A stretch of 64,000 nucleotides of DNA. It comes from an uncultured Pirellulales bacterium (GTDB taxonomy: Bacteria; Planctomycetota; Phycisphaerae; Sedimentisphaerales; Anaerobacaceae). This document shows positions 5,364 through 59,520 of this stretch, one piece after another. Location of the stretch: contig CAZVWH010000001.1 of assembly GCA_964631175.1 (NCBI GenBank), positions 32,952 to 96,951 on the forward strand, given 5' to 3'. The position numbers and the translations under genes are program-made. The notes beneath the pieces were generated by a model that saw nothing but the letters and a program-made list of their open reading frames with translations, made no database searches and was not told the origin of the DNA. Numbering within the stretch: position 1 is the first letter of the stretch; each line of letters starts with the position of its first letter.

Positions 5364-5412
5364 CCCCCAAATAAACCTGTCCTGAGCTAAGCCGAAGGAT
5401 TTGGGGGCTAAA
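5364..5412 (+). repeat. REP-like element (stem-loop + CTAAA), intergenic
   Basis: CCCCCAAAT-AAACCTGTCCTGAGCTAAGCCGAAGG-ATTTGGGGG-CTAAA. Confidence 0.7.
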
Positions 5413-5422
5413 CAACCAAGCA

Positions 5423-9063: not shown

Positions 9064-9089
9064 TTTAGCCCCCACCCTTGTGGTGGGGG
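9064..9089 (-). repeat. REP-like hairpin with TTTAG tail
   Basis: TTTAG-CCCCCACC-cttg-tGGTGGGGG. Confidence 0.6.
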
Positions 9090-16410: not shown

Positions 16411-16613
16411 CCCCTGACTGTAAATAAGGTGTATGTTTTAAGCATATAGTCTTTTTGATTAATCAAAAGGACTATATCAATTTTACTGCAACATACCTTA
16501 GAGGGATTTGGAAACTATCGACAACTGACGTGTGGCAGCCCCAAGCGTAACGGCTCGACTGAGCTCGCCGAAGTCTTGGGGATGGCTGAACTCTTTAGTG
16601 ATAAGCGACCATG
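16221..16613 (+). repeat. Tandem duplication unit 1 (HAD 3-prime end + palindrome + REP-like sequence)
   Basis: Period 511 bp. Essentially identical to 16732-17124 through ~16546, then a few mismatches. Confidence 0.85.
16444..16477. terminator. 34-bp near-perfect palindrome downstream of the HAD gene (second copy at 16955-16988)
   Basis: ATATAGTCTTTTTGATT/AATCAAAAGGACTATAT with one mismatch. Candidate terminator hairpin. Confidence 0.5.
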
Positions 16614-16731
16614 GACATCCCTCAGAGATGACGCTGCCACCCTTCGCGAGATACGCCTGTCCCGAGCAAAGCCTACTCTGAGCAACGTCGAAGAGTCGAG
16701 GAAAGCGACGAGAGACGAGATACTGTTTTGT

Positions 16732-16921
16732 GCCTGCCAATTGTGTGGTTTTTGAAGATGCTCCGAGCGGCGTACAGGCCGCCAAAGCCGCAGGCGCTAA
16801 GTGTATCGCAGTGACGAATTCCACAACCGCAGATAATCTCTATCAAGCTGATTTAATCTGTGATTCCCTTGAAAAGATTGACCTCCCTATAATCACAAAA
16901 CTAATCGATAAAAATGTTTAG
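16732..16921 (+). pseudogene. Duplicated 3-prime fragment (last 63 codons) of the HAD hydrolase gene
   Basis: ORF 16730..16921 translates identically to the C-terminus of 15724..16410. It is part of a 511-bp-period tandem duplication. Confidence 0.85.
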
Positions 16922-17124
16922 CCCCTGACTGTAAATAAGGTGTATGTTTTAAGCATATAGTCTTTTTGATTAATCAAAAGGACTATATCAATTTTACTGC
17001 AACATACCTTAGAGGGATTTGGAAACTATCGACAACTGACGTGTGGCAGCCCCAAGCACAGCGGCTCGACTGAGCTCGCCGAAGTCTTGGGGATGGCTGA
17101 ATTCTTTAGTGATAAGCGACCATC
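16732..17124 (+). repeat. Tandem duplication unit 2
   Basis: See unit 1. Confidence 0.85.
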
Positions 17125-25891: not shown

Positions 25892-26033
25892 CGTAAGCGT
25901 TCACGGGAAAACCGCATTTTTGTCATTGCGAGCGAAGCGAAGCAATCTAAAATCGTACGTTTTTGAGATTGCTTCGGCCTAAAGGCCTCGCAATGACACA
26001 AAAACGCCTTATTTTCTGTGTGAACGGTTACGT
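25892..26033. repeat. Compound palindromic element with core GTCATTGCGAG..CTCGCAATGAC (25922-25997)
   Basis: Outer inverted repeat CGTAAGCGTTCAC..GTGAACGGTTACG. The core shares AGCAATCT/AGATTGCT with 15519-15612. Confidence 0.75.
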
Positions 26034-26046: not shown

Positions 26047-26562
26047 CCCCAGATTCAAGAATCTGGGGCTAAATAAATTTACTTTAACCATGTCTTAAAA
26101 CATAATTTATTCTGATTCTTAAATCTTTTACACTGAAACAATATCTTTTATCATAACCTTTAGTCCATACTTTGCCGTTAAATCCATTTTTTTGCAAGGC
26201 ATAAGTGCTTACACGTTTGTATCGTTGTACTATTTGCGATATTGATTCTGAACAGGATTCGGCAACTATATGAATATGATCACTGCAGACAGTAAAGGCG
26301 CATATTTTCTGATTTATCCTTTTTGATTCGGCAAGAATAATCTCTTTTACTAACCTTTTTTGCGCTTCTTTTAATTTGACAGGCGTTCCATTTAGTTTTT
26401 GTTTATTCGTCAAATATAACTTGTTATCAGGTTGTAATATTCTTCCGTTTTTGACCCAGCCTCTTTCATCTCCCTGAAGCCAACTACCATAGGTTGTCCA
26501 TGTCAACATATATCCAATCATTTATATTTTTCTTTTTTAGCCCCCGATTCTTGAATCGGGGG
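26047..26562 (-). mobile_element. RAYT gene plus its two flanking inverted REP hairpins (REPtron-like unit)
   Basis: Left: CCCCAGATTCAAGAATCTGGGG-CTAAA (26047-26073). Right: TTTAG-CCCCCGATTCTTGAATCGGGGG (26536-26562). Same hairpin in inverted orientation, with a compensatory A:T to C:G change. Confidence 0.65.
26084..26521 (-). CDS. IS200/IS605-type HUH Y1 transposase-like protein, probably a REP-associated tyrosine transposase (RAYT)
   Basis: 145 aa with HUH motif SDHIHIV, then SQIVQRYKRVS..VWTKGYDKRY..INYVLRH (C-terminal Tyr helix). Single gene with no tnpB, flanked by inverted hairpins. Confidence 0.7.
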   Translation of the reverse strand: MIGYMLTWTTYGSWLQGDERGWVKNGRILQPDNKLYLTNKQKLNGTPVKLKEAQKRLVKEIILAESKRINQKICAFTVCSDHIHIVAESCSESISQIVQRYKRVSTYALQKNGFNGKVWTKGYDKRYCFSVKDLRIRINYVLRHG

Positions 26563-38466: not shown

Positions 38467-38617
38467 TCCTGGCAATGAGGGTCTGGTACAATGCATGTGA
38501 GAATAATACTGAGGATACCTCTGGCAACAGTACAGTGGTCGCACATCCGGACATGGGTGCAGCAACCACAGACATCTGGAACCAGTGGAATATTCCCTCG
38601 GCAGATTTTGTTAACAT
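38467..38617 (+). pseudogene. Decayed relic of a paralog C-terminus (copy 1)
   Basis: Frame of ORF 38463 reads EDTSGNSTVVAHPDMGAATTDIWNQWNIPSADFVNM, aligning with family ADSAGNS.VV.HPDP.A....WT.WNIPFADF.NVNM. It has no start or N-terminal part and ends in a hairpin. Confidence 0.7.
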
Positions 38618-38650
38618 GGCGGTCCCACGGGCAAAGCCCGTGGGACCGCC
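38618..38650 (+). terminator. Perfect 15-bp stem hairpin between paralogs A and B
   Basis: GGCGGTCCCACGGGC-AAA-GCCCGTGGGACCGCC followed by ATTT. The weak U-tract means it could be a terminator or an RNA-stability/REP hairpin. Confidence 0.55.
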
Positions 38651-38786
38651 ATTTGCATTCATCATCCGACGCCACAGTTCGGCTATGGAAAGCAGCTTCC
38701 ACGGCTAAAACCCCTGGTTTTCTGCGAAAGATGTTAGATTAAAGTACTGTTATTTGTTAGTGTAGCTTTTTTGAAGGAGGAATATT

Positions 38787-41030: not shown

Positions 41031-41051
41031 TTTTTTTGAAGGAGGAATATT

Positions 41052-44000: not shown

Positions 44001-44510
44001 AGACTTAGCCGCAGTGGTAACACATTTACCGGCGAGTATTCTGCTAACGGCTCTAACTGGACAACGCTGGGCTCCATTGATATAGCTATGCTTCCTGATA
44101 CCTACATAGGCTTATGCCTGACCAGCCACAACGTCGATGCGACGTGCACAGCCGAATTCTCTAATGTTACCACCGACGGCACAGGCCAGTGGCAATCACA
44201 GGATATCGGCATAGAAAGCAATATTGGTGAGCAGCTTTACGTAGTATTACAGGATAGCGCCGGCAATAGTGCGGTTGTAACTAATCCCGATCCCGCTGCA
44301 ACGATTATAGACACTTGGACACCTTGGAATATTCCGTTTACAGACTTTGCTAGCGTGAATATGCAGGCTATCAAGAAGATGGCTATCGGCGTCGGCGATA
44401 GGGCCAATACACAACCTGGTGGTGCAGGTAATTTGTACATTGATGATATTGGGCTGTATCTTCCGACACCTGAACCTGAACAAGAGCCGGATGAAGGTGG
44501 AGACGGTTGA
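41052..44510 (+). CDS. Array paralog C: LamG + 2 repeats + LamG + 1 repeat + shared C-terminal module
   Basis: Starts 21 nt after B with the same cassette. Two LamG domains (HWPFDEGSGTTLND.., WWKLDEGLGTRAVDWSGYNRHG..) and three H[ND]VYLGT..YYWR[VI]DE repeats. Confidence 0.9.
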   Translation: MCKKLIYLMLCVLVLGVTGSASAELIAHWPFDEGSGTTLNDVVGGNNGTLQGDPTWIVGPVNGALDFDGNEDLVTIPNSSALQLRSTGQYTVAVWVNVVNPDGGLILFSGEGCVAWANWYLGVTEGEPDARNLGGPPKQEGSLVFGVRTVNWGTVAGYVAAPFVPETWMHVAATYDGVTLRIYIDGQEVDSAEEVPLPRDNTNMPLNIAGDNGCSAIGRNWFTGKIDDLRIYDVALWEDEIQDIMTPASAWKPNPADNGSVAGIDPILSWNPGKQAVTHNVYLGTTMEDVSAATADNHPNVEVSLGQSENTYSPAESLVYGQTYYWRVDEANDVQVWRGDVWSFLVQPLTAYMPTPANGAKYLDPDIVLSWSPGLGAESHDVYLGTDPNNLTLESTAQTTTTYEPETLNYDTTYYWRIDEFDGSDTHVGDVWSFSILPDIPIRDPSLVGWWKLDEGLGTRAVDWSGYNRHGTIYGGPIWVDGYDGGALEFDGINNYVDLPIDSLIPSLTSCTITTWVDFSNTGGPWQRIFGFFNPNGFTSYMTLTPRSGDSGPMTFAIVTDFASPYPGNETDQLIAPSTLVSGWHHVAVAIDGQSDPHSMQLYLDGTVVAEDITETLPADLNDITSNMLGHTVHGLEAYFTGLLDDFRIYNYAMTQDEITDVMRIDTLRAWNPIPSNGALTDVENVLPLSWSPGDEAVQHDVYLGTNALAVESADASDTTGIYRGQQDANSYMPPEGVEPNQVYYWRIDEINTDAMVNKGKIWAFTVLPYLIVDDFESYDDVDNRIYNTWADYYVNNTGMTVGHIEPSFAELGIVHSGSQSMYMHYDNDGTVNEGTSYEQSGTLTFSEAERTWADAQDWTRRDVESLTLWFRGVPASVGSFTEGPPITMTAGGADIWDLADEFHFAYKQLSGEGSITARVVSISNTNVWAKAGVMIREGLSPGSVHVMIVVTPGSGVSFQRRITMDAGSEETTQADITAPQWVRLSRSGNTFTGEYSANGSNWTTLGSIDIAMLPDTYIGLCLTSHNVDATCTAEFSNVTTDGTGQWQSQDIGIESNIGEQLYVVLQDSAGNSAVVTNPDPAATIIDTWTPWNIPFTDFASVNMQAIKKMAIGVGDRANTQPGGAGNLYIDDIGLYLPTPEPEQEPDEGGDG

Positions 44511-44661
44511 TCCTGGCAATGAGGGTCTGGTACAATGCATGTGAGAATAATACTGAGGATACCTCTGGCAACAGTACAGTGGTCGCACATCCGGACATGG
44601 GTGCAGCAACCACAGACATCTGGAACCAGTGGAATATTCCCTCGGCAGATTTTGTTAACAT
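44511..44661 (+). pseudogene. Decayed relic of a paralog C-terminus (copy 2, identical to 38467-38617)
   Basis: Lies inside the 739-bp perfect repeat, offset 6044 bp from copy 1. Confidence 0.7.
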
Positions 44662-44694
44662 GGCGGTCCCACGGGCAAAGCCCGTGGGACCGCC
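44662..44694 (+). terminator. Perfect 15-bp stem hairpin between paralogs C and D (identical to 38618-38650)
   Basis: Same sequence as copy 1. Confidence 0.55.
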
Positions 44695-44830
44695 ATTTGC
44701 ATTCATCATCCGACGCCACAGTTCGGCTATGGAAAGCAGCTTCCACGGCTAAAACCCCTGGTTTTCTGCGAAAGATGTTAGATTAAAGTACTGTTATTTG
44801 TTAGTGTAGCTTTTTTGAAGGAGGAATATT

Positions 44831-47800
44831 ATGTGTAGAAAGTCGAAGTTCCACTATGGGGGGCAAAGATCCGGTCCGGCATACAGACGGAACGGATTGA
44901 TTTATATGATTTCCTTTGTATTGGTGCTGGGCCTCGCTGGAGCAAGCGCAGCGGAAGAAATTGACCCCTCACTTGTCGGCTGGTGGAAGCTCAATGAGGA
45001 TTTTGGCTCCACCGCTATTGATTGGTCCGGTCATGACAATCATGGCAGCCTCGTGGGTGACCCGCAATGGGTGTCCGGGTACATAGGCGGCACACTGGAT
45101 TTTGACGGTGATGGCGACTACATCGACTGCGGATATGATCCGATCTTTGATATCACCGACGAGATTACGCTCGCTGCATGGGTAAATATCAGGTCGATCC
45201 CCGTTCAGTGGGTATCTATCGTCACTAAGGGTGAATACGCTTGGAGACTTAGTAACGTGGAGAGCGACCCGAGGTTTCACTTTGGTATCACTATCTGGTC
45301 GGACGCTAACCCTTCAGTCAATGGAAGCACTGCGGTCGGCTACAACGAGTGGCATCACGTTGCCGGAACGCATGATGGTTCAGAGCTCAACCTATATTTG
45401 GACGGAGTGCCTGACGGGACACTCTCAAGTACTACTGCCATAGGTACCAATACCGCAAACCTATTTATTGGCGAAAACCCAGAGGCAGCAGGACGCTATT
45501 GGGACGGCCTCATCGACGATGTGCGTCTTTACAACCGGGCGTTGTCACAGACCGAGATAAATGAGCTGATGCCTCTGCAGCCCAGGGCCACGGCGCCCGA
45601 GCCGTATGACAAGGCAATACTTGTCACAACAGAGGTCACGCTTAGCTGGATCCCCGGAGATGGTGCTGCTTCACACTACTTATATTTTGGCGAGAACTTT
45701 GAAGATGTACAAAACGGAACCGAAGGCACCGACAAAGGCTTAACCAATCTGAACAATTACTCACCTCAGAGCTTGGAAACCGGCAAGACCTATTACTGGC
45801 GGGTCGATGAGGTCGAAGCCGATGGCACTACTACCCACACAGGCGATGTTTGGAGCTTTACTATTCCCTCGAAGTACGCCTATAATCCCGTCCCCCCCGA
45901 TAGTGCTGAATTTATAGACCCAAATGTCACGCTGAGCTGGGCTGCAGGTACAGGCTCGATTATACATTTTGTGTATTTCGGCGATAACCTCGAAGATGTG
46001 CAAGCCGGCACCGGCGGCACAAATAAAGGTTCTGTTACTACAGATCCGAATTATATCCCCGGCCCGCTCGAATTTGCGAAGACTTATTATTGGCGGATCG
46101 ACGAGTTCGATGGCATGAGAAGATATACAGGCGATGTCTGGAGTTTTACTACTGTCGGTCCCACTAATGGTGCAAAGGGCCAGTACTATAACAACGTAGA
46201 TTTGACAGGCCAACCAGTACTCACCCGTATAGACCCAAAAATAGATTTTACCTGGGGTGAGGATTCTCCGCATGATTTGGTTAATGCAAATAACTTCTCG
46301 GTCAGGTGGACCGCTGAGTTAGATGTGCCATTTACCGAGACTTATACCTTCTATACCTTAAGCGATGATTGCGTCCGATTGTGGATAGATGGAGAACTGA
46401 TTATTGACAACTGGACTGTTGTAAATGCTTGGGCTATAGAAGATAAGGGCGTTATCGACCTTGTTGCCGGGCAGGTATTCCTTAAGATGGAGTTCTTTGA
46501 TAGCGACGGAGCAGCGTCGGTACAGTTAAGATGGCAAAGTCCATCCTTACCACGACAAATTATTTCGCCTAGTGCATTATCACAACCACTAAGCGCCTCA
46601 GGTGGAAGACCAGATAACGGCGCCACAGAAATCAGACAGATACCTACGCTTCGATGGACTGCGGGAGATCAAGCTGCTCAGCATGATGTGTACTTCGGCA
46701 TTGATGAGACGGCTGTGAACAATGCTGATACAACAACACCAGATATCTATCGCGGCCGGCAAGACCTTGAAAATACCACATATATCCCCACCGAAGCTCC
46801 TCTTCTGTGGGGCCAGACTTACTACTGGCGAATAGATGAGGTCGAGGCTGATGGCGTGACGATAAATAAAGGCCGTGTCTGGAGCTTCACGGTAGCTGAC
46901 TATGCCGTAGTGGAAGACTTTGAATACTACAACGATGATGATAATAGAATATACCATACGTGGTCAGACTATGCCGTGAATAATACCGGCATGACTGTGG
47001 GGCACTTTGAGCCTCCGTATGCCGAGCAAAGTATAGTTCACGGCGGCTATCAAGCTATGTACATGCATTACGACAACGATGGTACCGTCAACGAGGGTAC
47101 TGCTTATGAACAGAGCGGGACACTCACTTTTTCTGAAGTCGAACGCCAGTGGGACGATCCGCAGGATTGGACCATAAACGGAGTTAACTCCTTAACACTG
47201 TGGTTCAGAGGCACACCGGCGTCTGTCGGCAGCTTTACAGAAGGGCCACCAATCACGATGACCGCTAATGGTACGGATATCTGGGATACGGCTGACGAGT
47301 TCCACTTTGCCTATAAACGGCTTTCCGGTGCTGGGAGCATAACAGCCAAGGTTCTCAGCGTTAGTAATACCAACTCATGGGCCAAGGCGGGTGTGATGAT
47401 TCGCCAGTCGCTGGAGCCCGGCTCCCTGCATGCTGCGATGGTCGTCACGCCTGGTAGTGGAGTTTCTTTCCAACGCCGAATGGCTGTGAACGGTGGCAGC
47501 GAGGAAACTTCACAAGACGACATCACCGCTCCACAATGGGTCAGATTAATCCGCGCCGGCAACAGCTTTATCGGACAATATTCAGCTAACGGAGCTACCT
47601 GGACAACACTGGAGACTGTGAATATGCCTATCTTGCTGGATGTTTATGTAGGCTTATGCCTGACCAGCCATAACGTTGATGAAACGTGCACAGCCGAATT
47701 CTCTGATGTTACCATATCCGGCACGGTTACAGGCGACTGGCTGTCGCAGGACATCGGCATTAAAAGTAACATTGCCGAGCCGATGTATGTAGTTCTGGCC

Positions 47801-48052
47801 GATAGCGCCGATAATAGTGCGTTGGTCAACCACCCAGATCCGGCTGCATCCATCATAGGAATCTGGACACAGTGGAATATTCCCTTTGCTGATTTTGCTG
47901 GCGTCAATATGCAGGCTATCAAGAAGATATCCATTGGTGTCGGTGATAGAGCGAGTACACAGCCCGGCACCGCCGGTGATTTGTACATTGATGATATTGG
48001 GCTGTATCTTCCAACACCCGAACCAGAACCAGAGCCAAGTGGAGCCAGTTGA
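44831..48052 (+). CDS. Array paralog D: LamG + 2 repeats + PA14 + 1 repeat + shared C-terminal module
   Basis: The first ~120 codons are identical to B. PA14 segment: GAKGQYYNNVDLTGQPVLTRIDPKIDFTWGEDSP..NNFSVRWTAEL..YTFYTLSDDCVRLWIDGELIIDNW. Confidence 0.9.
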   Translation: MCRKSKFHYGGQRSGPAYRRNGLIYMISFVLVLGLAGASAAEEIDPSLVGWWKLNEDFGSTAIDWSGHDNHGSLVGDPQWVSGYIGGTLDFDGDGDYIDCGYDPIFDITDEITLAAWVNIRSIPVQWVSIVTKGEYAWRLSNVESDPRFHFGITIWSDANPSVNGSTAVGYNEWHHVAGTHDGSELNLYLDGVPDGTLSSTTAIGTNTANLFIGENPEAAGRYWDGLIDDVRLYNRALSQTEINELMPLQPRATAPEPYDKAILVTTEVTLSWIPGDGAASHYLYFGENFEDVQNGTEGTDKGLTNLNNYSPQSLETGKTYYWRVDEVEADGTTTHTGDVWSFTIPSKYAYNPVPPDSAEFIDPNVTLSWAAGTGSIIHFVYFGDNLEDVQAGTGGTNKGSVTTDPNYIPGPLEFAKTYYWRIDEFDGMRRYTGDVWSFTTVGPTNGAKGQYYNNVDLTGQPVLTRIDPKIDFTWGEDSPHDLVNANNFSVRWTAELDVPFTETYTFYTLSDDCVRLWIDGELIIDNWTVVNAWAIEDKGVIDLVAGQVFLKMEFFDSDGAASVQLRWQSPSLPRQIISPSALSQPLSASGGRPDNGATEIRQIPTLRWTAGDQAAQHDVYFGIDETAVNNADTTTPDIYRGRQDLENTTYIPTEAPLLWGQTYYWRIDEVEADGVTINKGRVWSFTVADYAVVEDFEYYNDDDNRIYHTWSDYAVNNTGMTVGHFEPPYAEQSIVHGGYQAMYMHYDNDGTVNEGTAYEQSGTLTFSEVERQWDDPQDWTINGVNSLTLWFRGTPASVGSFTEGPPITMTANGTDIWDTADEFHFAYKRLSGAGSITAKVLSVSNTNSWAKAGVMIRQSLEPGSLHAAMVVTPGSGVSFQRRMAVNGGSEETSQDDITAPQWVRLIRAGNSFIGQYSANGATWTTLETVNMPILLDVYVGLCLTSHNVDETCTAEFSDVTISGTVTGDWLSQDIGIKSNIAEPMYVVLADSADNSALVNHPDPAASIIGIWTQWNIPFADFAGVNMQAIKKISIGVGDRASTQPGTAGDLYIDDIGLYLPTPEPEPEPSGAS
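46169..46544 (+). other. PA14 domain-coding segment of paralog D
   Basis: G.YY.N..L.G.PV..R.D..I.F.WG...P......FSVRW.. ..Y.F....DD..RLW.... is the classic PA14 signature. Confidence 0.8.
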
Positions 48053-48073
48053 CTTTTTTGAAGGAGGAATATT

Positions 48074-51000
48074 ATGTGTGGAAAGTCGAAGTTCCGTTAT
48101 GAGGGGGCGAAGATTCGCTATGGCGGATTGATTCCTGTCCTGAGCCGTGTCGAAGGATATCTAATATCTTTTGTTTTACTGCTCGGGCTGGCCGCGGGCG
48201 TGGCAACAGCAGACATCGACACAGGTCTGGTCGGGCACTGGAAGTTAGATGAGGGCTCCGGTGATACTGCCTATGATTCAAGTGGAAATGGCAACTACGG
48301 TATACTTGAAGGTGACCCACAGTGGGTAGCTGGCTGGATAGGCGGCGCTTTGGAATTTGACGGAGTTGATGATTACGTTGATTGTGGAGATGGTAGTAGC
48401 TTAGATATTAATGATGTAGTTACAATTGCAACCTGGGTAAAAACAAATGATAGTGGTGGTGGTGAGTGGAACCCCTACGTGCACAAAGGCGACCACAGTT
48501 ATGGATTGAAGCACGGCGAGCGTAACGCCGTAGAATTTGTTATTTACGATGGAACCTGGTACACGACTGAATATTCTGTAGATGCTTCGTTTAATGACGA
48601 ATGGCACCATCTGGTTGGAACTTATGACGGAAGTATGCTTAGACTTTACGTCGATGGCATATTAAAAGTTACTTCTGCGCACACAGGATCTATAGACAGC
48701 CAGCCTACGTACCCTATCTATATAGGAAGCAATTCTGAGGAAACTAGCCGCCTCTACGAAGGCAAGATAGACGAAGCCCGCATTTACAACCGCGCGTTGC
48801 CAGGAGCCGATATTGTGTGGCTGTTTACTGGGAAGCCACCGACAAAGGCTCTTAATCCCATCCCCCTAAATGATAGCGTGGTTGAGCAAACTACGCCGAC
48901 TCTTACCTGGGTGGCTGGAGTGTATGCCGCCTCGCACGATGTGTATTTAAGCGACAGTTTTGCCAAGGTAAATGCTGCTACCAGCAGCAGTCCAATGGGC
49001 CCCGGTGAAGTTTACAAAGCACGCAACGATGCTAATAGTTTTACGGTCGAGAATCTAACTGAAGGCGTGACTTATTACTGGCGAGCCGATGAGGTAAATG
49101 ACCTGCAACCCGGTAGTCCGTGGAGAGGCGATATCTGGAGCTTTACGATTGCCTCGAAGTCTGCCTTCCAACCCATTCCGGGCAATGGCTCTCTGTTTGT
49201 TGACCCAAATGTCACGCTAAGCTGGACTGCAGGTACAGGTTCGGTTATACATTTCTTTTATTTCGGTGATAACCTTGAAGATGTGCAAGCCGGCACCGGC
49301 GGCACAAGTAAAGGTACTGTTGGTGAACTGAATTATCACCCCGGCCTGCTCGAACGTGAGAAGACTTATTATTGGAGAGTAGATGAGTTCGATGGCATGA
49401 GAAGACATACAGGCAATGTCTGGAGCTTTACAACTGCTCGTCCTGGCGGAGGCCTGAAAGGGTCGTATTATAACGGGATAGCCTTTGAGCAACTGGTGCT
49501 GGAGCGCATAGACCCTCAGATCAACTTTGACTGGGGCAATGACTCACCGGCTCCGGGTGTCAACACCGATGCTTTCTCAGTTATATGGGCCGGGGAGTTA
49601 GAGATACCGTTTTCTGGCATCTGGACCTTCTATACCAATATCAACGACGGCGTGCGTCTATGGGTAAATAACGAACTGATTGTTGAGAACTGGGCCGACC
49701 GCTACTCGGCCACCGAGAACTGGGGCGACCTAATTGAACTTGTCGCCGGGAAATGTGACCTTAAGATGGAGTATTATGAAAACTGGGAGATTGCAACAGC
49801 ACAACTGCTCTGGGAAGGCCCCAAAACGCCAAAGCAATTGATTCCACAGGCGGCATTCTCGCCGACATTAAGGGCCAGCAACCCGAACCCATATGATGGT
49901 GCGGTAGCTGTAAAGCAGACACCTACTCTTCAGTGGACTGCGGGAGATAACGCAGCCCATCACGAAGTGTACTTCGGTGATGATCAGACTACTGTAGAAA
50001 ACGCCCACACAACAACAATAGGTATCTACCATGGCCAACAGGAGCTCGATCAAACCAAGTACACTCCCATCGAAGCGCCTCTCGAATGGAATAAGACTTA
50101 TTACTGGCGAATAGATGAGGTCGAGGCTGATGGCGTGACGATAAATAAAAGCCTTGTCTGGAGCTTCACGGTAGCTGACTATGTCGTGGTGGAGGACTTT
50201 GAAGACTACAACGATTTCGACAATAGGATATTCGATGTGTGGGCAGACTACCCTGTGAATAATACCGGCATGACTGTGGGCCACTTTGATCTTCCTTTTG
50301 CGGAGCGAAGGATAGTTCACAATGGCTTTCAATCCATGTACATGCTTTACGACAACGATGGTACGGTGAACGAGGGTACCAACTATGAACAGAGCGGTAC
50401 ACTGTTTTATTCTGAAGCCGAACGAGAGTGGGCCGATGCCCAGGATTGGACCAGAGACGGTGTTAACTCTTTAACGCTGTGGTTCAGAGGCATATCGGCA
50501 TCTGTTGGCAGCTTCGCCCCTCAGGGACAAGCAGAAGGGCCACCAATCACGATGACCGCTAATGGTACGGATATCTGGGGAAATTCTGACCAGTTCCACT
50601 TTGCCTATAAGAAGCTCTCTGGCGAGGGGAGCATAACAGCGAAGGTAGTCAGCGTTAGTAACACCGACCCCTGGGCCAAGGTGGGTGTAATGATTCGCCA
50701 GTCGCTGGATCCCGGTTCCGTAAATACTGCCATAGTCATCACACCTGAGAATGGAGTTTCCTTCCAGCGTCGGCCCCTCATAGATGCTGGTAGTGAAGAC
50801 ACCACGATAGAGGGGATCACCGCTCCACACTGGGTGAGATTGACCCGCAGCGGGAACACCTTTATAGGGCAGTATTCAGCTAACGGAGCTACCTGGACAA
50901 CACTGGACTCTGTGAATATGCCTATCTTGCTGGATGTTTATGTAGGCTTATGCCTGACCAGCCATAACGTCGATGCAACGTGCACAGCCGAATTCTCCAA

Positions 51001-51331
51001 CGTTACTATGACCGGCACGGTTACAGACCCCGATCAAGCCGGGGGTTGGCTGTCGCAGGACATTGGTATAGAGAGTAACATTGCCGAGCCGATGTATGTA
51101 GTTCTGGCCGATAGCGCCGGCAACAGTGCAACAGCCAAACATCCTGATCCTGCTGCAACGATTATAGACACTTGGACACCTTGGAATATTCCGTTCACAG
51201 ACTTTGCTAGCGTGAATATGCAGGCTATCAAGAAGATGGCTATTGGCGTCGGCGATAGGGCCAATACACAACCTGGTGGTGCAGGTGATTTGTACATTGA
51301 TGATATTGGGCTGATGCTGCCTGCGGAATAG
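48074..51331 (+). CDS. Array paralog E: LamG + 2 repeats + PA14 + 1 repeat + shared C-terminal module
   Basis: Starts 21 nt after D with the same cassette. The N-region contains IPVLSRVEGY, encoded by a REP-like core. Ends IDDIGLMLPAE without the PEPEP tail. Confidence 0.9.
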   Translation: MCGKSKFRYEGAKIRYGGLIPVLSRVEGYLISFVLLLGLAAGVATADIDTGLVGHWKLDEGSGDTAYDSSGNGNYGILEGDPQWVAGWIGGALEFDGVDDYVDCGDGSSLDINDVVTIATWVKTNDSGGGEWNPYVHKGDHSYGLKHGERNAVEFVIYDGTWYTTEYSVDASFNDEWHHLVGTYDGSMLRLYVDGILKVTSAHTGSIDSQPTYPIYIGSNSEETSRLYEGKIDEARIYNRALPGADIVWLFTGKPPTKALNPIPLNDSVVEQTTPTLTWVAGVYAASHDVYLSDSFAKVNAATSSSPMGPGEVYKARNDANSFTVENLTEGVTYYWRADEVNDLQPGSPWRGDIWSFTIASKSAFQPIPGNGSLFVDPNVTLSWTAGTGSVIHFFYFGDNLEDVQAGTGGTSKGTVGELNYHPGLLEREKTYYWRVDEFDGMRRHTGNVWSFTTARPGGGLKGSYYNGIAFEQLVLERIDPQINFDWGNDSPAPGVNTDAFSVIWAGELEIPFSGIWTFYTNINDGVRLWVNNELIVENWADRYSATENWGDLIELVAGKCDLKMEYYENWEIATAQLLWEGPKTPKQLIPQAAFSPTLRASNPNPYDGAVAVKQTPTLQWTAGDNAAHHEVYFGDDQTTVENAHTTTIGIYHGQQELDQTKYTPIEAPLEWNKTYYWRIDEVEADGVTINKSLVWSFTVADYVVVEDFEDYNDFDNRIFDVWADYPVNNTGMTVGHFDLPFAERRIVHNGFQSMYMLYDNDGTVNEGTNYEQSGTLFYSEAEREWADAQDWTRDGVNSLTLWFRGISASVGSFAPQGQAEGPPITMTANGTDIWGNSDQFHFAYKKLSGEGSITAKVVSVSNTDPWAKVGVMIRQSLDPGSVNTAIVITPENGVSFQRRPLIDAGSEDTTIEGITAPHWVRLTRSGNTFIGQYSANGATWTTLDSVNMPILLDVYVGLCLTSHNVDATCTAEFSNVTMTGTVTDPDQAGGWLSQDIGIESNIAEPMYVVLADSAGNSATAKHPDPAATIIDTWTPWNIPFTDFASVNMQAIKKMAIGVGDRANTQPGGAGDLYIDDIGLMLPAE
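49451..49822 (+). other. PA14 domain-coding segment of paralog E
   Basis: GLKGSYYNGIAFEQLVLERIDPQINFDWGNDSPAPGVNTDAFSVIWAGEL..WTFYTNINDGVRLWVNNELIVENW. Confidence 0.8.
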
Positions 51332-51528: not shown

Positions 51529-52917
51529 CTACATTTTTTTCTGAAGCCGGCGGTTTATAGCAGTGGCAGCTTCGCGTCCACTCTTGATGGCGGTTACTAC
51601 CAGAGAAGGACCATTGACGATGTCACCGGCTGCAAAAATCCCCGGCCTGCTTGCCTGACAGTCATTTACCGCCACGTTGCCTTGGTCGTCGAGCTGCAAG
51701 TCGAGATTAGCGATAAGACCTTCTTGAACCACATGCAAAAATCCCATTGCCAAAATCACAAGGTCCGTTTTAATAACGAAATCGTTGTCTGACAGCTCAT
51801 TTACCTTCCAGCCATTCGAATCTTTAATCCACTGCACCTCACAGCCGTGTAGCTGCTCAACGCGTTTATTTCCTGTCAACCGTTTGGTCATAACCGACCA
51901 GCGTCGATGACAGCCTTCTTCGTGTGACGAAGAAGTCCGCATAATTCGCGGCCACATAGGCCAAGGTGTATCAACCGGCCGATTCTCCGGAGGTTTGGGT
52001 AGAATTTCAAGCTGGTAAATCTCCTTTGCCCCCTGCCGACGCGCAGTGCCGACACAATCACTACCTGTATCACCCCCGCCTATCACAACCGCAGCTTTGT
52101 CTTTTGTCCGCCACGGCGGATTCTGAGCGGTCAAAAAATCCATCGCATATACAACATTTTGTAAATCCGCACCTGGGACATCGAGAGGCCGTGGCTGGCG
52201 TGCCCCCATCGCCAGCAAGATGCAATCGAACATCTTGAGCAAATAATGTACAGAAATATCACTTCCCACATCGACGTCGGTTTGAAATTCAATACCTTCG
52301 GCGATTAGCTGTTTCAGTCTTCGGTCGATGATCCTTTTTTCCAGCTTAAAATCCGGAATTCCGTAACGCAGAATGCCTCCGAGCTGCTGGTCTTTTTCAA
52401 AAACGGTCACCGCGTGCCCTGCCCTTGCCAATTGCTGCGCAGCAGCCAATCCAGCGGGGCCAGAGCCTATTATAGCCACCCGCTTGCCGGTTCTTTCTAC
52501 AGCCGGCAAAGGTTCAATCCAACCTTCAGAAAAACCTCTCTCGACAATCTGGTATTCGATTTGTCTGATTGTCACAGGCTCATCGTTAATCGAAAGAGTA
52601 CATGCGGTTTCACAGGGAGCAGGACAGACCCTACCCGTGATCTCAGGAAAGTTATTAGTAGCATGAAGCAACTGACAAGCACGTTCCCACTGACCTTTGT
52701 ATATAAAATCGTTAAGATCAGGAATAGAGTTTCCCAGAGGACAGCCGACACCATGACAGAACGGTATTCCACAGTCCATACAGCGTGCCGCCTGCTGGCG
52801 GATTTGGTTCGGCGTAAGATGCAGGTCCAACTCGCGAAAATCGTGTATCCGCTGCTCAACCGGACGAAGACCTGCGTCCTGTCGTTTATACTTTAGAAAA
52901 CCTTTTACTTCACCCAT
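51529..52917 (-). CDS. gltD: Glutamate synthase small (beta) subunit
   Basis: CMDCGIPFCH..GCPLGN Fe-S ligands, VAIIGSGPAGLAAA and VIGGGDTGSDC dinucleotide folds. GAGGA RBS 7 nt before ATG 52917. Confidence 0.95.
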   Translation of the reverse strand: MGEVKGFLKYKRQDAGLRPVEQRIHDFRELDLHLTPNQIRQQAARCMDCGIPFCHGVGCPLGNSIPDLNDFIYKGQWERACQLLHATNNFPEITGRVCPAPCETACTLSINDEPVTIRQIEYQIVERGFSEGWIEPLPAVERTGKRVAIIGSGPAGLAAAQQLARAGHAVTVFEKDQQLGGILRYGIPDFKLEKRIIDRRLKQLIAEGIEFQTDVDVGSDISVHYLLKMFDCILLAMGARQPRPLDVPGADLQNVVYAMDFLTAQNPPWRTKDKAAVVIGGGDTGSDCVGTARRQGAKEIYQLEILPKPPENRPVDTPWPMWPRIMRTSSSHEEGCHRRWSVMTKRLTGNKRVEQLHGCEVQWIKDSNGWKVNELSDNDFVIKTDLVILAMGFLHVVQEGLIANLDLQLDDQGNVAVNDCQASRPGIFAAGDIVNGPSLVVTAIKSGREAATAINRRLQKKM

Positions 52918-52978
52918 TCTCGATCCTCGTCTTTCGCTTCTCAATGCTCGTCGAGTATCGAGCATCCAGAATCAAGTA

Positions 52979-55900
52979 TCAACGGAATACTTCCTCTGTA
53001 GCAGGGGTGGTTTCCGTGTCACGCTGCTCTGCTGCGCGCATCTTTTCCAAAGACAGTCGGTAATCTATTGGCATCACCTTTACGAATTTTCCCACCATAT
53101 CCGGCCAAGCATCCAAAATATATTTTGCACGCTGACTATTGGTCCACTTCAGATGTTGCTTAACCAAATCGTGCAGTAACTCTTTATCTTCCCGCTGCCA
53201 AACGCTCTCCAGCTCCACCATATCAAGATTGCAAAGAGTGTCGAATAGCTGAACCTCGTCAAGAACGTAAGCAACACCGCCGCTCATGCCGGCGGCGAAA
53301 TTACAGCCGGTCTGACCCAAAACTGCGACTACACCACCGGTCATATACTCGCAGCCGTGGTCGCCGAGGCCCTCGACAACCGCTATTGCCCCGCTATTGC
53401 GCACGGCAAACCGCTCGCCCGCCACGCCGTTTATAAAGACCTCGCCGGCGGTCGCACCATAAAGCAAAGTGTTTCCAACGATGATATTCTCGTGGGCCAT
53501 AAACGGGCTATCTTGCGGCGTCTGGACTATGATTCGTCCACCGGAAAGTCCTTTGCCAAGGTAATCATTACTTTCGCCGATAAGCCGCAGTGTAACGCCC
53601 GGTGCAAGAAATGCGCCGAAGCTCTGCCCTGCCGATCCGTGAAAAACAATCTCCAGCGTCCCATCCGGCAGGCCTTTCGGGCCATATTTGAGAACTATCC
53701 TATTACTGAGAATCGCACCTACAGTTCGATTAATATTACAAATAGGCATTTCGATTACAGACCTTTTTTTGTGCTCAATTGCCTCTTTTGCCTTTTCCAG
53801 AATCTGCCAATCGAGATTGTCGTTAATTGATTTCGACCCCGCAATAAACTTGTCCTGAGCAGAGTCGAAGGATTGCGGGGCTAAATGTTTAGCCCCCAAA
53901 TTTATTTGGGGGTTTTTGGGCTTATTGAAGATGGCAGAAAAATCCAGCCCCTTGGCCTTATAGTGGTCGATGGCTTTGCGAACGCTCAATCGATGAACCA
54001 CACCAACCATATCCTCAAAGCATCTTATGCCCAGCTCAGCCATAATCCGGCGGACTTCCTCAGCCACAAAGTGCATAAATCGTTCAACGTACTCAGGCTT
54101 ACCGGCGAATCGTTTTCGAAGCTCAGGGTCCTGAGTACCAATCCCAAACGGACAGGCGCCTTCGTGACACTTGCGTAAGAGCGTACAGCCCAGTGCTACC
54201 AGAGCTGCGGTGCCGAAACCAAACCGCTCGGCTCCCAGCATCGCCGCCACGACCACGTCTCTGCCGGTTTTCATCTGGCCGTCAACCTGAATCCTGATCC
54301 TGTCGCGCAATCCGTTCATCACAAGCACTTGCTGTGTCTCAGCCAATCCAAGCTCCCATGGACAGCCGGTGTGCTTGATTGAAGAAAGCGGACTTGCACC
54401 GGTTCCACCGTCACGGCCACTGATAAGAAGCTCATCGGCATTGCCTTTGGCAACGCCTGCGGCAATCGTACCCACACCAGCTTCCGCCACAAGTTTGACC
54501 GATACTTTTGCTGCAGGATTGCCGCACTTGAGGTCATATATAAGCTGCGCCAAATCTTCAATCGAATATATGTCGTGATGAGGTGGCGGTGATATAAGTG
54601 TCACGCCGGGTGTCGAGTATCTTAACGCAGCAATTTCATCGGTCACTTTATGCCCGGGTAATTGACCACCTTCGCCCGGCTTGGCCCCTTGAGCAATTTT
54701 AATCTGCAGCTCCTTGGCGTGTGCGAGATAGTTGATTGTAACACCAAACCTACCGCTGGCCACTTGCTTGATAGCGCAGCTCTTCGAATCGCCATTTTTT
54801 TCAGGTATATATCGATCTGGATCTTCACCACCTTCACCGGTGTTGCTCATCGCACCGATGCGATTCATCGCAACAGCCAGGCACTCGTGTGCCTCCTTGC
54901 TGATTGAGCCATGACTCATCGCTCCGGTGCAGAACCTCTTGACTATTTCAGCGGCGGATTCAACCTCATCAATATCTATAGGTTCACCAGGGACAAATTC
55001 AAACAGTCCCCGCAGGGTGCACAACTTTTGGGACTGATCGTTTACGGCCTGTGCATAGTCAGCGTATGCCTTTGCATCATCATATTTGACTGCGTGCTGC
55101 AACCGAGACACCGTAGTAGGGTTCCAAAGATGGTACTCGCCGTTGCGTCGATAATGATAATCTCCACCAAATTCCAATTCCAAATTTGTTGAGTATTTAG
55201 CCCCCCAATTTATCGTCAAGATGCCTTGCGGCATTGGGGGGTTCTCAAACGCAGATTTATGGCGAGCGACGGCATCATGTGCAATTTCCTGAAGCCCAAT
55301 TCCTTGGATGCGTGAGCTCGTACCCGTAAAGTATTTTTCAATAAAAGACTGATTCAGTCCAATCGCCTCAAAAAGCTGAGCAGCGTGATAGCTGCGAAGG
55401 GTCGATATGCCCATCTTGCTCATCGTCTTTAGAATGCCTTTTTTAATCGCAGCTATATAATTATCAGCTATCCGGACCGATTCCAGCTTCTCAGACAGAT
55501 CACCTTGCCGATGTAATTGATCGAGCAGCTCAAATACCAGGTATGGATTAATCGCGTTGGCACCGTAGCCACACAGGAGGCAAAAGTGCATCACCTCTCT
55601 GGGCTCGCCGCTTTCGACAATCAAACCGGCTTCGCCACGAAGTCTGCGATTAAGCAGACCATAATGAACTGCTGCCGTTGCCAAAAGCGACGGAATTGGC
55701 ACTTTAGTCTGCGAAGCATCACGGTCACTGATGATGAGCAGTGACGCCCCGCTCCTAACCTCTTTTTCCGCGGTATCGATTAATGAATCCAACGCACAAC
55801 TGAGGCTGTTAGCGGCATCCTGCCTATAGGCGGTACCGGCCTCGAAAACGGCTGAAAGAGTAGCGACCTTAAAGCCGTCACGTCTAACCTGACGCAATCG

Positions 55901-57649
55901 CTCAACGTCTTCATCGGTCAAAATCGGGTGCGGCAGCTTAAGCTGCCTGCAATGCTGGGCAGTCTCGTCCAGAATATTTAGCTTTTTGCCCGTAAACATC
56001 ATAAGGCTCATAACCAGCCCTTCGCGAAGGGGGTCAATTGCCGGATTTGTGACCTGTGCGAATAGCTGTTTGAAATAATCGAACAGCAACTTCGGCCTAT
56101 CAGACAGCACCGCAAGGGGAGTATCATCACCCATCGAACCTATAGGTTCCTGACCATTGACGGCCATTGGCGTCAGGATCATCTTAAGCTCTTCTCTTGT
56201 GTATCCGAACGCGCGCATTCGCTGGGCTATAGTCTCAGGATTACTTCTGACAAGCTTTGGCGTATCAAATAGACCACGAAGCTCAATTCGATTTTCCTCA
56301 AGCCATCTACGGTACGGCTTCTGCCGGGCAACCTTGCTCTTCATCTCATTATCGGTAATAATCCGACCATCAACGGTATCAACCAAAAACATATGTCCGG
56401 GCTGTAAACGTCCTTTTCTTCTGATCTTTTCCGGCGGAAACTCTATAACTCCGGCCTCGCTGGCCAGGATTGCCAGCCCGTCGGTCGTAATCAGGTAACG
56501 ACAAGGCCTTAAGCCGTTGCGGTCCAATGTCCCACCAATAACTCGGCCGTCGGTAAATACCATCGCCGCTGGGCCATCCCACGGCTCCATTATTGATGCG
56601 TGGTACTCATAAAATGCTCGCTTGTCCGTGCTAATGTGATACTTGGAGCCGAAAGCTTCCGGAATCATCATCATCATTGCATGTGGCATACTTCGACCAG
56701 CCTGAACGAGAAGCTCAAGCGCACTATCAAAACATGCCGAGTCACTCATCTCAGGCGATAGAACCGGCAGTAAATCACTAATATCATCACCAAATAGTTG
56801 ACTTGCCATTTCCCTTTCACGAGCGTGCATGTGATTACGGTTGCCGCTAAGCGTGTTTATCTCACCGTTATGGGCTATGCACCGAAACGGCTGAGCAAGC
56901 TGCCAGTTTGGAAACGTATTGGTGCTGTATCGCTGATGGACAATTGCAAGTGCAGACTTGACCCGCTCATCAGCCAAATCCGGATAATAAGCGAACAACT
57001 GCCAGGCCATGAACATGCCTTTATAGCAGATGGTCTTGCACGAAAGTGAGGTTACATAGAAATCTCCGCCTTTGTCTGCGAACTTATCATGGATGAGCCG
57101 CTCCGCTCGCCTGCGAGCTAAATATAGGCGCCGCTCCAGCTCTTCACCTTCAAAGCCGCCGCCATGAACAAATATTTGTTTTATCGAAGGCTCAACAGAC
57201 AGCGCTATCCGGCCAAGGCAACTGTTATCTGTTGGTACATCTCGCCAACCAAGTACCTTCATGCCATAGTAGGTAATCGCAGACTCCAAGATTTGGTCGC
57301 ATTGCTCTCTGAGCTTTGTATCTTGCGAGCCGAAGACCATTCCTACACCATATTGCGAGGGCTGCGGCAGCGAAAAGCCCAATTTCTCTTCACATTCCAC
57401 AAAGAAGAGCTCGTGTGGAATCTGAAAAAGAATGCCGGCACCATCACCTGTAGTCTCATCAGCTCCTGCAGCTCCACGGTGGCGTAAGTTAATAATAATC
57501 TGCTTGCCATATTCGATAATCGTATGGTCACGCTTACCAGATATGTTTACAACCGCACCTATGCCACAGCTACCCTTCTTGCTTTCGCCAGAAAGCAAGG
57601 GAGGATGCTCGTACTGCGATTCATATAAACCCTTGTTTTTCAACTTCAT
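52979..57649 (-). CDS. gltB: Glutamate synthase large (alpha) subunit, carrying an in-frame REP-derived insert
   Basis: N-terminal amidotransferase Cys (GSCGIGAVVN), FMN/Fe-S central domains and a C-terminal GXGXG beta-helix (GSAGQSFGAF..). Start set at the first ATG (57649). Confidence 0.95.
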   Translation of the reverse strand: MKLKNKGLYESQYEHPPLLSGESKKGSCGIGAVVNISGKRDHTIIEYGKQIIINLRHRGAAGADETTGDGAGILFQIPHELFFVECEEKLGFSLPQPSQYGVGMVFGSQDTKLREQCDQILESAITYYGMKVLGWRDVPTDNSCLGRIALSVEPSIKQIFVHGGGFEGEELERRLYLARRRAERLIHDKFADKGGDFYVTSLSCKTICYKGMFMAWQLFAYYPDLADERVKSALAIVHQRYSTNTFPNWQLAQPFRCIAHNGEINTLSGNRNHMHAREREMASQLFGDDISDLLPVLSPEMSDSACFDSALELLVQAGRSMPHAMMMMIPEAFGSKYHISTDKRAFYEYHASIMEPWDGPAAMVFTDGRVIGGTLDRNGLRPCRYLITTDGLAILASEAGVIEFPPEKIRRKGRLQPGHMFLVDTVDGRIITDNEMKSKVARQKPYRRWLEENRIELRGLFDTPKLVRSNPETIAQRMRAFGYTREELKMILTPMAVNGQEPIGSMGDDTPLAVLSDRPKLLFDYFKQLFAQVTNPAIDPLREGLVMSLMMFTGKKLNILDETAQHCRQLKLPHPILTDEDVERLRQVRRDGFKVATLSAVFEAGTAYRQDAANSLSCALDSLIDTAEKEVRSGASLLIISDRDASQTKVPIPSLLATAAVHYGLLNRRLRGEAGLIVESGEPREVMHFCLLCGYGANAINPYLVFELLDQLHRQGDLSEKLESVRIADNYIAAIKKGILKTMSKMGISTLRSYHAAQLFEAIGLNQSFIEKYFTGTSSRIQGIGLQEIAHDAVARHKSAFENPPMPQGILTINWGAKYSTNLELEFGGDYHYRRNGEYHLWNPTTVSRLQHAVKYDDAKAYADYAQAVNDQSQKLCTLRGLFEFVPGEPIDIDEVESAAEIVKRFCTGAMSHGSISKEAHECLAVAMNRIGAMSNTGEGGEDPDRYIPEKNGDSKSCAIKQVASGRFGVTINYLAHAKELQIKIAQGAKPGEGGQLPGHKVTDEIAALRYSTPGVTLISPPPHHDIYSIEDLAQLIYDLKCGNPAAKVSVKLVAEAGVGTIAAGVAKGNADELLISGRDGGTGASPLSSIKHTGCPWELGLAETQQVLVMNGLRDRIRIQVDGQMKTGRDVVVAAMLGAERFGFGTAALVALGCTLLRKCHEGACPFGIGTQDPELRKRFAGKPEYVERFMHFVAEEVRRIMAELGIRCFEDMVGVVHRLSVRKAIDHYKAKGLDFSAIFNKPKNPQINLGAKHLAPQSFDSAQDKFIAGSKSINDNLDWQILEKAKEAIEHKKRSVIEMPICNINRTVGAILSNRIVLKYGPKGLPDGTLEIVFHGSAGQSFGAFLAPGVTLRLIGESNDYLGKGLSGGRIIVQTPQDSPFMAHENIIVGNTLLYGATAGEVFINGVAGERFAVRNSGAIAVVEGLGDHGCEYMTGGVVAVLGQTGCNFAAGMSGGVAYVLDEVQLFDTLCNLDMVELESVWQREDKELLHDLVKQHLKWTNSQRAKYILDAWPDMVGKFVKVMPIDYRLSLEKMRAAEQRDTETTPATEEVFR
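53837..53912 (+). repeat. REP-like double hairpin located inside the gltB reading frame
   Basis: CCCCGCAAT-AAACTTGTCCTGAGCAGAGTCGAAGG-ATTGCGGGG-CTAAATGTTTAG-CCCCCAAAT-tt-ATTTGGGGG. Homologous to 5364-5412 with compensatory stem changes. Confidence 0.8.
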
Positions 57650-57952
57650 ATTTTTCAAATTCCCCGATTGGCCACTGTACCCTAAAAATCCTCGAATAAA
57701 TTAAGGGCTAAATATTCAACTACCTTAGGCAAATCTAACAGGTTCTATAAAAATAGAAACTGTCTTGTAATAATATACTCTGATTTTCAGAGTTCAGAAT
57801 GAAAATTGCTTTAATAAACAATATAAGAATAATAGATAATATCCGCAAATATTCTAATAATCGTATATGGGCGCAAAAAAAACACCATTAAATGAGAGAA
57901 TAAGTGAACTAAAGCCCGGAGTGCCTAAAGTGCCTAAATTTGGAGTCGGTTT

Positions 57953-59470: not shown

Positions 59471-59520
59471 CCCCGTGTAAAACACGGGGCTAAATATTTA
59501 GCCCCACATTTTAGGTGGGG
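59471..59520. repeat. Head-to-head REP hairpin pair between glnK and glnA
   Basis: CCCCGTGT-aaa-ACACGGGG-CTAAATATTTAG-CCCCAC-attttag-GTGGGG. Confidence 0.65.

Follow-up and report, generated by a model that had tools for sequence, protein, structure and literature searches.

The gltB locus

We analyzed a 64,000-nt stretch of contig CAZVWH010000001.1 (assembly GCA_964631175.1; hereafter the window) from an uncultured planctomycete, in which gltB, the gene for the large subunit of glutamate synthase, contains a palindromic repeat in frame at 53837-53912. The repeat appears to consist of two units of the repetitive extragenic palindromic (REP) type, arranged like a REP doublet forming hairpins (REPIN), and a second, single REP stands further upstream in the same gene. 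The features of gltB and its neighbor are as follows.

52979..57658, minus strand: gltB, glutamate synthase large subunit, an intact open reading frame (ORF) of 1559 codons that hosts both in-frame repeats
51529..52965, minus strand: gltD-like small subunit (Pfam Fer4_20 and Pyr_redox_2), directly downstream of gltB
53837..53917, minus strand: REPIN-like doublet with its A-run, 81 nt or 27 codons, GltB residues 1248-1274, KNPQINLGAKHLAPQSFDSAQDKFIAG
53837..53885: REP unit B, 9-bp stem CCCCGCAAT/ATTGCGGGG and CTAAA tag, loop filled by a 24-nt module
53888..53912: REP unit A, TTTAG tag followed by CCCCCAAAT tt ATTTGGGGG, empty loop
53849..53872, plus strand: 24-nt module CTTGTCCTGAGCAGAGTCGAAGGA, exactly codons 1263-1270 (SFDSAQDK)
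55196..55241: second tagged REP, TTTAG-CCCCCCAAT-23 nt-ATTGGGGGG, in frame

The genes glnA, gltB and gltD are clustered on the minus strand in intact synteny, glnA preceding gltB and gltD following it, and the likely start of gltB is the ATG at 57649. The protein has all four expected Pfam domains (GATase_2, Glu_syn_central, Glu_synthase and GXGXG; 275-587 bits) and matches the solved Bacillus subtilis GltA (PDB 7mfm) over its full length (E=0, residues 24-1549). Its nearest relatives belong to Planctomycetota, in metagenome-assembled genomes (MAGs) of the Phycisphaerae/Sedimentisphaerales type. The original prediction, made from the letters of the window, had placed the element in frame within gltB, in the linker between the flavin mononucleotide (FMN)/synthase domain and the C-terminal beta-helix. 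Both points were confirmed, since residues 1248-1274 lie between Glu_synthase (846-1211) and GXGXG (1305-1492) in an unbroken ORF. With no internal stops and full domain scores, gltB is not a pseudogene.

It might be argued that the arrangement is an artefact of an assembly join through the repeat, or that gltB is decaying. Repeats can produce chimeric joins, the GltD sequence of the window is without a record in the gene-position collection, and the best protein-database match to the C-terminal fragment of GltB is 83% identical. On the other hand, both flanks of the element are collinear gltB sequence in one frame with full-length domains and no stops over 1559 codons, the glnA-gltB-gltD order is undisturbed, and an independent assembly (L001, encoding the GltB orthologue P0001) has the same arrangement. 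We therefore regard an artefact or a decaying gene as very improbable.

Anatomy and folding of the doublet

Read from its sequence, the element is a REPIN-like doublet, that is, two tagged REP units head to head. The first hairpin is formed by CCCCGCAAT (53837-45), a 26-nt loop and ATTGCGGGG (53872-80), the center CTAAA-TG-TTTAG (53881-92) joins both hairpins, and the second hairpin consists of CCCCCAAAT (53893-901), TT and ATTTGGGGG (53904-12), followed by TTTTT. On the coding strand of gltB the order is AAAAA-(CCCCCAAAT aa ATTTGGGGG-CTAAA)-ca-(TTTAG-CCCCGCAAT..ATTGCGGGG). Both 9-bp stems are perfect, and the letters of the element agree exactly with the original prediction. Folding was strong on both strands: as sense RNA the doublet reached -31.7 kcal/mol (z -3.6) and as plus-strand DNA -18.8 kcal/mol (z -3.9), and in neither case did any of 200 shuffles fold as well. 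Unit A together with TTTTT is terminator-like on the plus strand, which is antisense to gltB.

The claimed homology to an intergenic element was borne out as well. The copy at 5364-5412 differs from the gltB element at two stem positions, and both differences are compensatory (C:G to G:C, A:T to C:G).

5364..5412: intergenic homologue, CCCCCAAAT-loop-ATTTGGGGG-CTAAA, with a 24-nt module at 5376-5399 (plus strand)

The core GTCCTGAGCnnAGnCGAAGG occurred four times in the window against 0.11 expected, CCCCCAAAT four times against 0.77, and the tag with the start of the stem, TTTAGCCCC, 11 times against 0.58. Motif counts so far above expectation exclude chance as the source of the gltB repeat.

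Other classes of element were considered. The gltB element is not flanked by a direct repeat (aaaaa / tcgaa). A miniature inverted-repeat transposable element, a class with terminal inverted repeats, a target-site duplication and a related insertion sequence, was rejected, as no target-site duplication and no insertion sequence with matching ends was seen. A known structured RNA or self-splicing intron was also rejected: the only gathering-level Rfam match in the window was one tRNA elsewhere, and a search of 53600-54150 at E<=10 gave sub-threshold chance matches and no family.

Readability of the insert and the second REP in gltB

Only one of the six frames of the doublet is free of stops, and it is precisely the one that gltB reads; the same holds for the copy in L001. 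The other frames are closed because the tags impose TAA or TAG there. On the sense strand no T-run follows the last hairpin, the T-run being on the antisense strand, and since gltD lies downstream of gltB in what looks like an operon, read-through of the repeat is needed. Thus, an open frame without a sense-strand T-run is the sole configuration survivable for an essential gene with gltD behind it. We infer that the insert is translated as part of GltB.

The second tagged REP (55196-55241) encodes GltB residues ~806-822 (..PPMPQGILTINWGAKY) at the boundary between the central and FMN domains. Its 14-aa segment is missing in all 118 homologues covering the site, and also in 7mfm. Of the 11 TTTAGCCCC-tagged sites of the window, gltB thus contains three, and each of its two insertions falls on a boundary between domains.

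A derived insert in a permissive linker

We aligned 120 GltB orthologues to compare the linker. A canonical linker of ~19 residues, conserved in length and motif, was found in 118 of them, including P0002, the closest orthologue (86% identical over the whole protein, 89-95% around the insertion site), which is without the insert. Its linker reads HRP-GTCDGRAIRLTNAQPVKIN-DNLDWQ, and that of the window KP-KNPQINLGAKHLAPQSFDSAQDKFIAG-SKSIN-DNLDWQ. In 200 of 200 resamplings the window GltB grouped with P0002, to which it is closer on both sides of the insert. On this alignment evidence the gltB insert is derived, not ancestral, and lineage-restricted, in line with the original prediction. The expected size of the added segment (~25-28 aa) was right for the insert itself, which has 27 codons (81 nt with the A-run), and too large for the net gain, which is 13 aa because ~14 canonical linker residues are missing; in the DNA alignment the element stands in place of the canonical linker codons.

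These data also bear on the view that an old variable linker merely resembles the repeat by coincidence or shared ancestry of the peptide. The linker sequence does vary among orthologues. Yet the length and motif of the linker are conserved in nearly all of them, the motif counts far exceed those of shuffles, and the homology is at the nucleotide level: tags and compensatory changes in the stems are shared with intergenic copies of the window and with 35 loci from metagenomes. A homologous peptide does exist elsewhere, in P0001 from L001, which formally is the outcome that the original prediction had named as its own refutation; its DNA, however, is the same repeat with an extra 24-nt module, rather than an ancestral peptide. 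We consider this view refuted, with practically no probability left to it.

In an AlphaFold2 model of the C-terminal 428 aa (60 aligned sequences), the predicted local distance difference test (pLDDT) score was <50 at fragment residues 114-145 (GltB 1245-1276) and 85-98 in the beta-helix. Solved GltB sequences align poorly at the insert: 7mfm is gapped, and the Azospirillum alignments begin downstream. In addition, the surroundings of the junction of the FMN domain and the beta-helix hold other, unrelated insertions in four planctomycete GltB proteins (P0009, P0029, P0083 and P0118), all in frame and 10-75 aa in length. Taken together, the low pLDDT, the poor alignment of solved GltB and the unrelated neighboring inserts indicate a permissive inter-domain linker, and insertions seem to collect at this junction in general. 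Some of the four inserts look repeat-derived (for example, ENGGCPRFS..).

The tagged REP family and a RAYT-like gene

A census of the window for C4-5...G4-5 hairpins with a TTTAG head (CTAAA tail on the opposite strand) identified nine tagged hairpins, at 5364, 9064, 26047, 26536, 53837, 53888, 55196, 59471 and 59497, six of which are extragenic. A scan with TTTAGCCCC added tagged sites at 16406 and 16917, which makes 11 in 64 kb. Members outside gltB, and a putative REP-associated tyrosine transposase (RAYT) gene lying between two of them, are listed below.

9064..9089: single tagged REP, intergenic, TTTAG-CCCCCACC cttgt GGTGGGGG
26047..26073: tagged REP beside the RAYT-like gene, CCCCAGATTC aa GAATCTGGGG-CTAAA
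26084..26521, minus strand: RAYT-like Y1 (HUH) transposase, 145 aa, Pfam Y1_Tnp 37.3 bits (cut-off 23)
26536..26562: tagged REP on the other side of the RAYT-like gene, inverted, TTTAG-CCCCCGATTC tt GAATCGGGGG
59471..59520: empty REPIN-like doublet, CCCCGTGT aaa ACACGGGG-CTAAA-ta-TTTAG-CCCCACAT ttt AGGTGGGG

The empty doublet has head-to-head units and precedes the ATG of glnA by ~25 nt; on the minus strand, its last hairpin with TTTT resembles a terminator of the upstream gene. Among perfect CCCC hairpins, 87 of 183 strand-instances had a TTAG head, which corresponds to about one per hairpin.

The best NCBIfam model for the transposase was REP_Tyr_transpos (35.9 bits, under the cut-off of 80), and its relatives are labeled 'REP element-mobilizing transposase RayT' at JGI. 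The identical protein recurs on 24 metagenome contigs, always at a single conserved locus with GT1 and GH130 neighbors, and a tblastn search of all fetched loci with this protein returned the window copy only.

Several other repeats were noticed in the window. A different hairpin repeat family is present at 25915-25998, adjoining the RAYT locus, and at 15545-15615, in the ORF-poor stretch 13.8-15.7 kb (GTCATTGCGAG..GAAGCAATC / GATTGCTTCG..CTCGCAATGAC). The region 16406-17092 is a tandem duplication of ~511 bp. Within it are the TTTAGCCCC sites at 16406 and 16917, a palindrome that occurs in identical form at 16444-16477 and at 16955-16988, and two hairpins (16539-16581, 17050-17092).

Recurrence of the doublet in metagenomes and at the same gltB site

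Metagenome contigs were scanned with the pattern TTTGGGGGCTAAAC-N(0-30)-TTTAGCCCC. The doublet backbone was detected at 35 loci, nearly all in the sample series that holds the RAYT locus. Their contexts were varied and unrelated, mostly a few codons from gene ends. At locus L137 the doublet lengthens the C-terminus of a membrane-protein ORF, and at L131 (~5290-5440, minus strand) a doublet with the 24-nt module is in frame in a homologue of PabB (aminodeoxychorismate synthase I), just upstream of the conserved GGxxGYxSY motif.

The same doublet is found at an identical codon position in the gltB of L001 (protein P0001, 79% identical to the window GltB), where the middle hairpin holds an additional 24-nt unit. 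L001 is not the sister of the window GltB, that place being taken by P0002 in all 200 resamplings. At 4-fold degenerate sites window and L001 are 33% identical, which is saturation, vs 53% for window and L002, and the doublet backbone (~55 nt) is 100% identical between window and L001. The flanks of the element differ right up to the element itself; the residues after the insert are SKSIN in the window, which keeps the canonical VKIN, vs FRRHA in L001.

One explanation would be a single ancient insertion inherited vertically by both lineages. The left junction (P|KNPQ) is identical, the distance to the DxLDW anchor is equal, and the composite architecture is common to the two, all of which would be expected of it. 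However, the window groups with the insert-free P0002 in every resampling; the canonical linker, which is not regenerable from the insert, persists in P0002, in P0010 and in about twelve further sequences that are just as distant; and a backbone without a single difference is at odds with 33% identity at 4-fold sites. Such inheritance thus appears quite improbable. A recombination tract as the source of the shared insert was rejected, because the flanks differ up to the element and P0002 is closer on both sides. Since vertical descent needs repeated regeneration of the canonical linker and a tract would bring its flanks, what remains is independent site-specific insertion or a transfer limited to the element. 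The recurrence could reflect site-specific targeting or selection for the insert.

The 24-nt module

The unit filling the loop of REP unit B has the consensus C[CT]TGTCCTGAGC-NNN-G[TC]CGAAGG[AG]. In the window it also occurs within one of five secreted LamG/PA14 paralogues (35596-51331).

48134..48157, plus strand: 24-nt module in the LamG/PA14 ORF 48074..51331, 8 codons PVLSRVEG, in the signal-peptide region

Comparison of this ORF with its paralogues 44831 and 38787, which are without the module, gave GGATTGATT|24 nt|TAT.., with no target-site duplication around the module (GATT|..|TATC). Exact 24-nt differences were also found between window and L001 in the middle hairpin of the gltB doublet, and between L124 and L139, whose flanks are ~96% identical. 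L148 and L138 were rejected as an orthologous empty/filled pair, as only ~90 nt upstream are common to them, probably as part of a larger repeat. As a side observation on the paralogues, identical perfect 17-nt palindromes lie at 38616-38652 and 44660-44696, and the ORFs 38787 and 44831 have identical N-termini; the comparisons indicate a probable recent segmental duplication of these two genes within the family.

The module can occupy any of the three hairpin loops of the doublet in either orientation, and the hairpin loops fall into two length classes (2-3 nt and 26-28 nt). It also nests in itself: in L148, L126/L138/L145 and L048 modules stand within modules, in both orientations, producing 50-nt loops in the third doublet hairpin. 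Five of its six frames are open. The core TGTCCTGAGCNNNGNCGAAGG was present in at least 120 genomes (L003-L122; one genome per species scanned), which among the matches listed belong to Acidobacteriota, Chloroflexota, Pseudomonadota, Bacteroidota, Verrucomicrobiota, Planctomycetota, Cyanobacteria, Nitrospirota, the candidate phyla radiation (CPR) and others, and in 92 viral contigs (a series including L161-L240). Head-to-tail copies at exactly 24-nt spacing were seen in L014, L038 and L215. In its exact 24-nt differences, its free orientation in loops, its nesting and arrays, its own hairpin (see below) and its near-identical sequence in most bacterial phyla (among the matches listed) and in viral contigs, the module behaves as a discrete, frame-neutral insertion unit of 8 codons, apparently separate from the REP loop.

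Covariation was assessed by a structure-blind search with up to 5 mismatches in 1.14 Mb of fetched loci, which yielded 143 distinct versions of the module. Pair 8:21 was UA in 123, CG in 13 and UG in 4; pair 7:22 was CG in 129 and UA in 6; and pair 5:24 was UG in 61, UA in 60 and CG in 14. Double-change cells numbered 24 vs 2.3 in shuffles (0/500). The hairpin supported in this way has 4 bp, a tandem G.A and then GC-NNN-G, and the G.U wobbles imply that the folding strand is the strand as written, which is antisense in gltB. Complementarity of the flanks around the module in the 120 genomes was weakly enriched (p=0.013), so that a location always in a hairpin loop is unsupported outside the lineage of the window. 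Module orientation showed no clear bias relative to neighboring ORFs as called by a crude ORF caller. No Rfam family corresponded to the module in the gathering-level scan of the window or in the E<=10 search of 53600-54150. By inspection, a hammerhead was rejected for the core (no CUGANGA/GAAA core, no Rfam match), as was a K-turn (a bulge of 1 nt vs 3 nt in the K-turn, no Rfam match). A text search of the literature with the core in both orientations and with its peptides (for example, FDFAQD and VLSEVEG) returned nothing relevant.

Two further observations concern diverged or interrupted copies. In the tandem duplication described above, the loops (GGCTCGACTGAGCTCGCCGAAG) of the hairpins 16539-16581 and 17050-17092 resemble a diverged module. 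At 15640-15700 (minus strand), a module is split by an insertion of ~34 nt (CCTGTCC|...|GAGCTAAGTCGAAGGA), which suggests that other small units may nest into it. Tentatively, and with somewhat less than even probability, the module may be a hitherto undescribed element of ultra-small size, mobile or templated, that is served by universal mobilizing machinery; it would then represent a new class of bacterial genome parasite and also a widespread source of 8-residue protein insertions.

Origin of the gltB insert

We think it likely that the gltB element belongs, as a REPIN-like doublet, to a genome-specific TTTAG-tagged family and is a tolerated selfish insertion in the linker, with spread by RAYT proposed from the neighborhood of the transposase gene. 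The family, a TTTAG tag with a C4-5 stem hairpin, would most likely have been dispersed via single-stranded DNA by the RAYT-type Y1 transposase at 26084-26521. One doublet may then have landed in the linker that joins the FMN domain to the C-terminal beta-helix, displacing ~14 codons of the old linker. It would have survived by offering the sole stop-free frame and no sense-strand terminator, in a segment tolerant of changes in length and sequence. The insert would be transcribed and presumably translated as a disordered surface loop of 27 residues, a tolerated passenger rather than a designed part of the enzyme, and the second, single REP may have taken the same route at the central/FMN boundary.

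Several points weigh against this proposal. The stems flanking the RAYT-like gene (CCCCAGATTC, CCCCCGATTC) are related to but different from those in gltB (CCCCCAAAT, CCCCGCAAT), the NCBIfam RAYT model is below its cut-off, and dependence on RAYT is circumstantial. The tag of the window family is TTTAG, not GTAG or CGTC, the tags of the described superfamilies that are named in the title of Di Nocera et al. 2013 (PMC3733652). The doublet at the same site in the non-sister L001 is unexplained by random insertion followed by vertical descent.

It is also conceivable that the hairpins have been exapted, as an antisense terminator, an mRNA stabilizer, a signal that halts the ribosome briefly at a domain boundary and so aids co-translational folding, or a useful linker peptide. 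The exact position of both gltB repeats at domain boundaries, the strong mRNA structure, the likeness of unit A with TTTTT to an intrinsic terminator on the antisense strand, and the identity of the backbone at a shared codon position, although the two lineages are deeply diverged and their synonymous sites saturated, would fit such a role. Nevertheless, 118 of 120 orthologues do without the insert, and domain boundaries are also the sole sites at which insertions can survive. Dozens of unrelated copies between genes have a backbone just as conserved, so that gltB need not be the cause of its conservation, and the gltB copies of the element in window and L001 differ only at family-variable positions of the 24-nt module, which points to constraint or turnover of the element and not of the protein. 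Exaptation is thus unlikely, though less so than a single ancient insertion, and a tolerated selfish doublet is the reading we prefer.

On this reading, REPIN-type DNA, "extragenic" by definition, can enter the coding sequence of an essential nitrogen-assimilation gene twice and be read as linker, a direct path from genome parasite to lineage-specific protein sequence. Annotators and phylogeneticists should be cautious here, as segments of this kind are no homologous characters of the protein. Because the doublet recurs at a single codon position in two lineages that diverged deeply, the choice of target by these elements can be tested. If the 24-nt module is confirmed as discrete, it would account for many of the conserved short motifs of the "hypothetical peptide" kind in the genomes of bacteria and would raise the question of its mover.

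Comparison with known systems

The closest counterpart is the REP/REPIN-RAYT system, whose layout was described by Bertels and Rainey (2011; PMC3116915). The likeness includes short palindromes rich in G+C, doublets of inverted units folding into a longer hairpin (53837-53912 and 59471-59520), and terminator-like behavior at gene ends. It may extend to a short tag kept at one end of the palindrome, to dispersed and mostly extragenic copies (here 11 tagged sites in 64 kb, with six of the nine tagged hairpins extragenic, and 35 metagenome loci), and to a putative cognate RAYT, the single-copy Y1 transposase gene between inverted repeat units. The differences, besides the tag, are the planctomycete host, the three of 11 TTTAGCCCC-tagged window sites that are coding and read in frame, and the colonization of loops in the window family by a separate 24-nt module.

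Rickettsia palindromic elements (RPE), to which the original prediction had compared the gltB repeat, are ~105-146 bp long and Rickettsia-specific (Ogata et al. 2000, cited in PMC3184786). The functional likeness holds, since in both cases a palindromic selfish repeat is in frame in a conserved gene and adds a peptide at a function-compatible site, but the gltB element is 76-81 bp, made of two REP units, and unrelated in sequence and organism. RPE are not known to have an associated transposase. The REP/REPIN-RAYT system fits better, because a RAYT-like gene flanked by such hairpins is present in the window.

For the 24-nt module only, the nearest likeness is to the small dispersed repeats SDR1-8, which are said to be dispersed units of 21-27 nt and reportedly occur only in Nostocaceae. 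Like them, it is very small, nests in repeats or hairpins, shows presence or absence at matching sites and encodes no protein; the likeness is one of description, and the module differs in being found in most bacterial phyla (among the matches listed) and in viral contigs. The SDRs are cited as Elhai et al. 2008 in PMC5861425 and PMC3116915.

Repeats fused to or inserted in ORFs have been reviewed (PMC3184786) for BRE of Bordetella, RUP, BOX and SPRITE of Streptococcus pneumoniae, and ERIC/YPAL. The lengthened C-terminus in L137 and the insertions within gltB are of that type, whereas the families and sizes are others, and gltB, which encodes an essential multidomain enzyme, has two independent insertions, each at a domain boundary. 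The original prediction had called an in-frame REP in a core enzyme unusual; the insertion is real, and even two occur in gltB, but there are precedents in several repeat families (PMC3184786). In-frame repeat insertion is therefore already known (RPE, BRE and RUP; PMC3184786), and the gltB doublet adds another case. What the analysis adds is the second gltB insertion, the setting with a RAYT-like gene, the return of the doublet to one site in a lineage that is not a sister, and the 24-nt module, which is more novel than the gltB insertion itself and is the lead most worth following.

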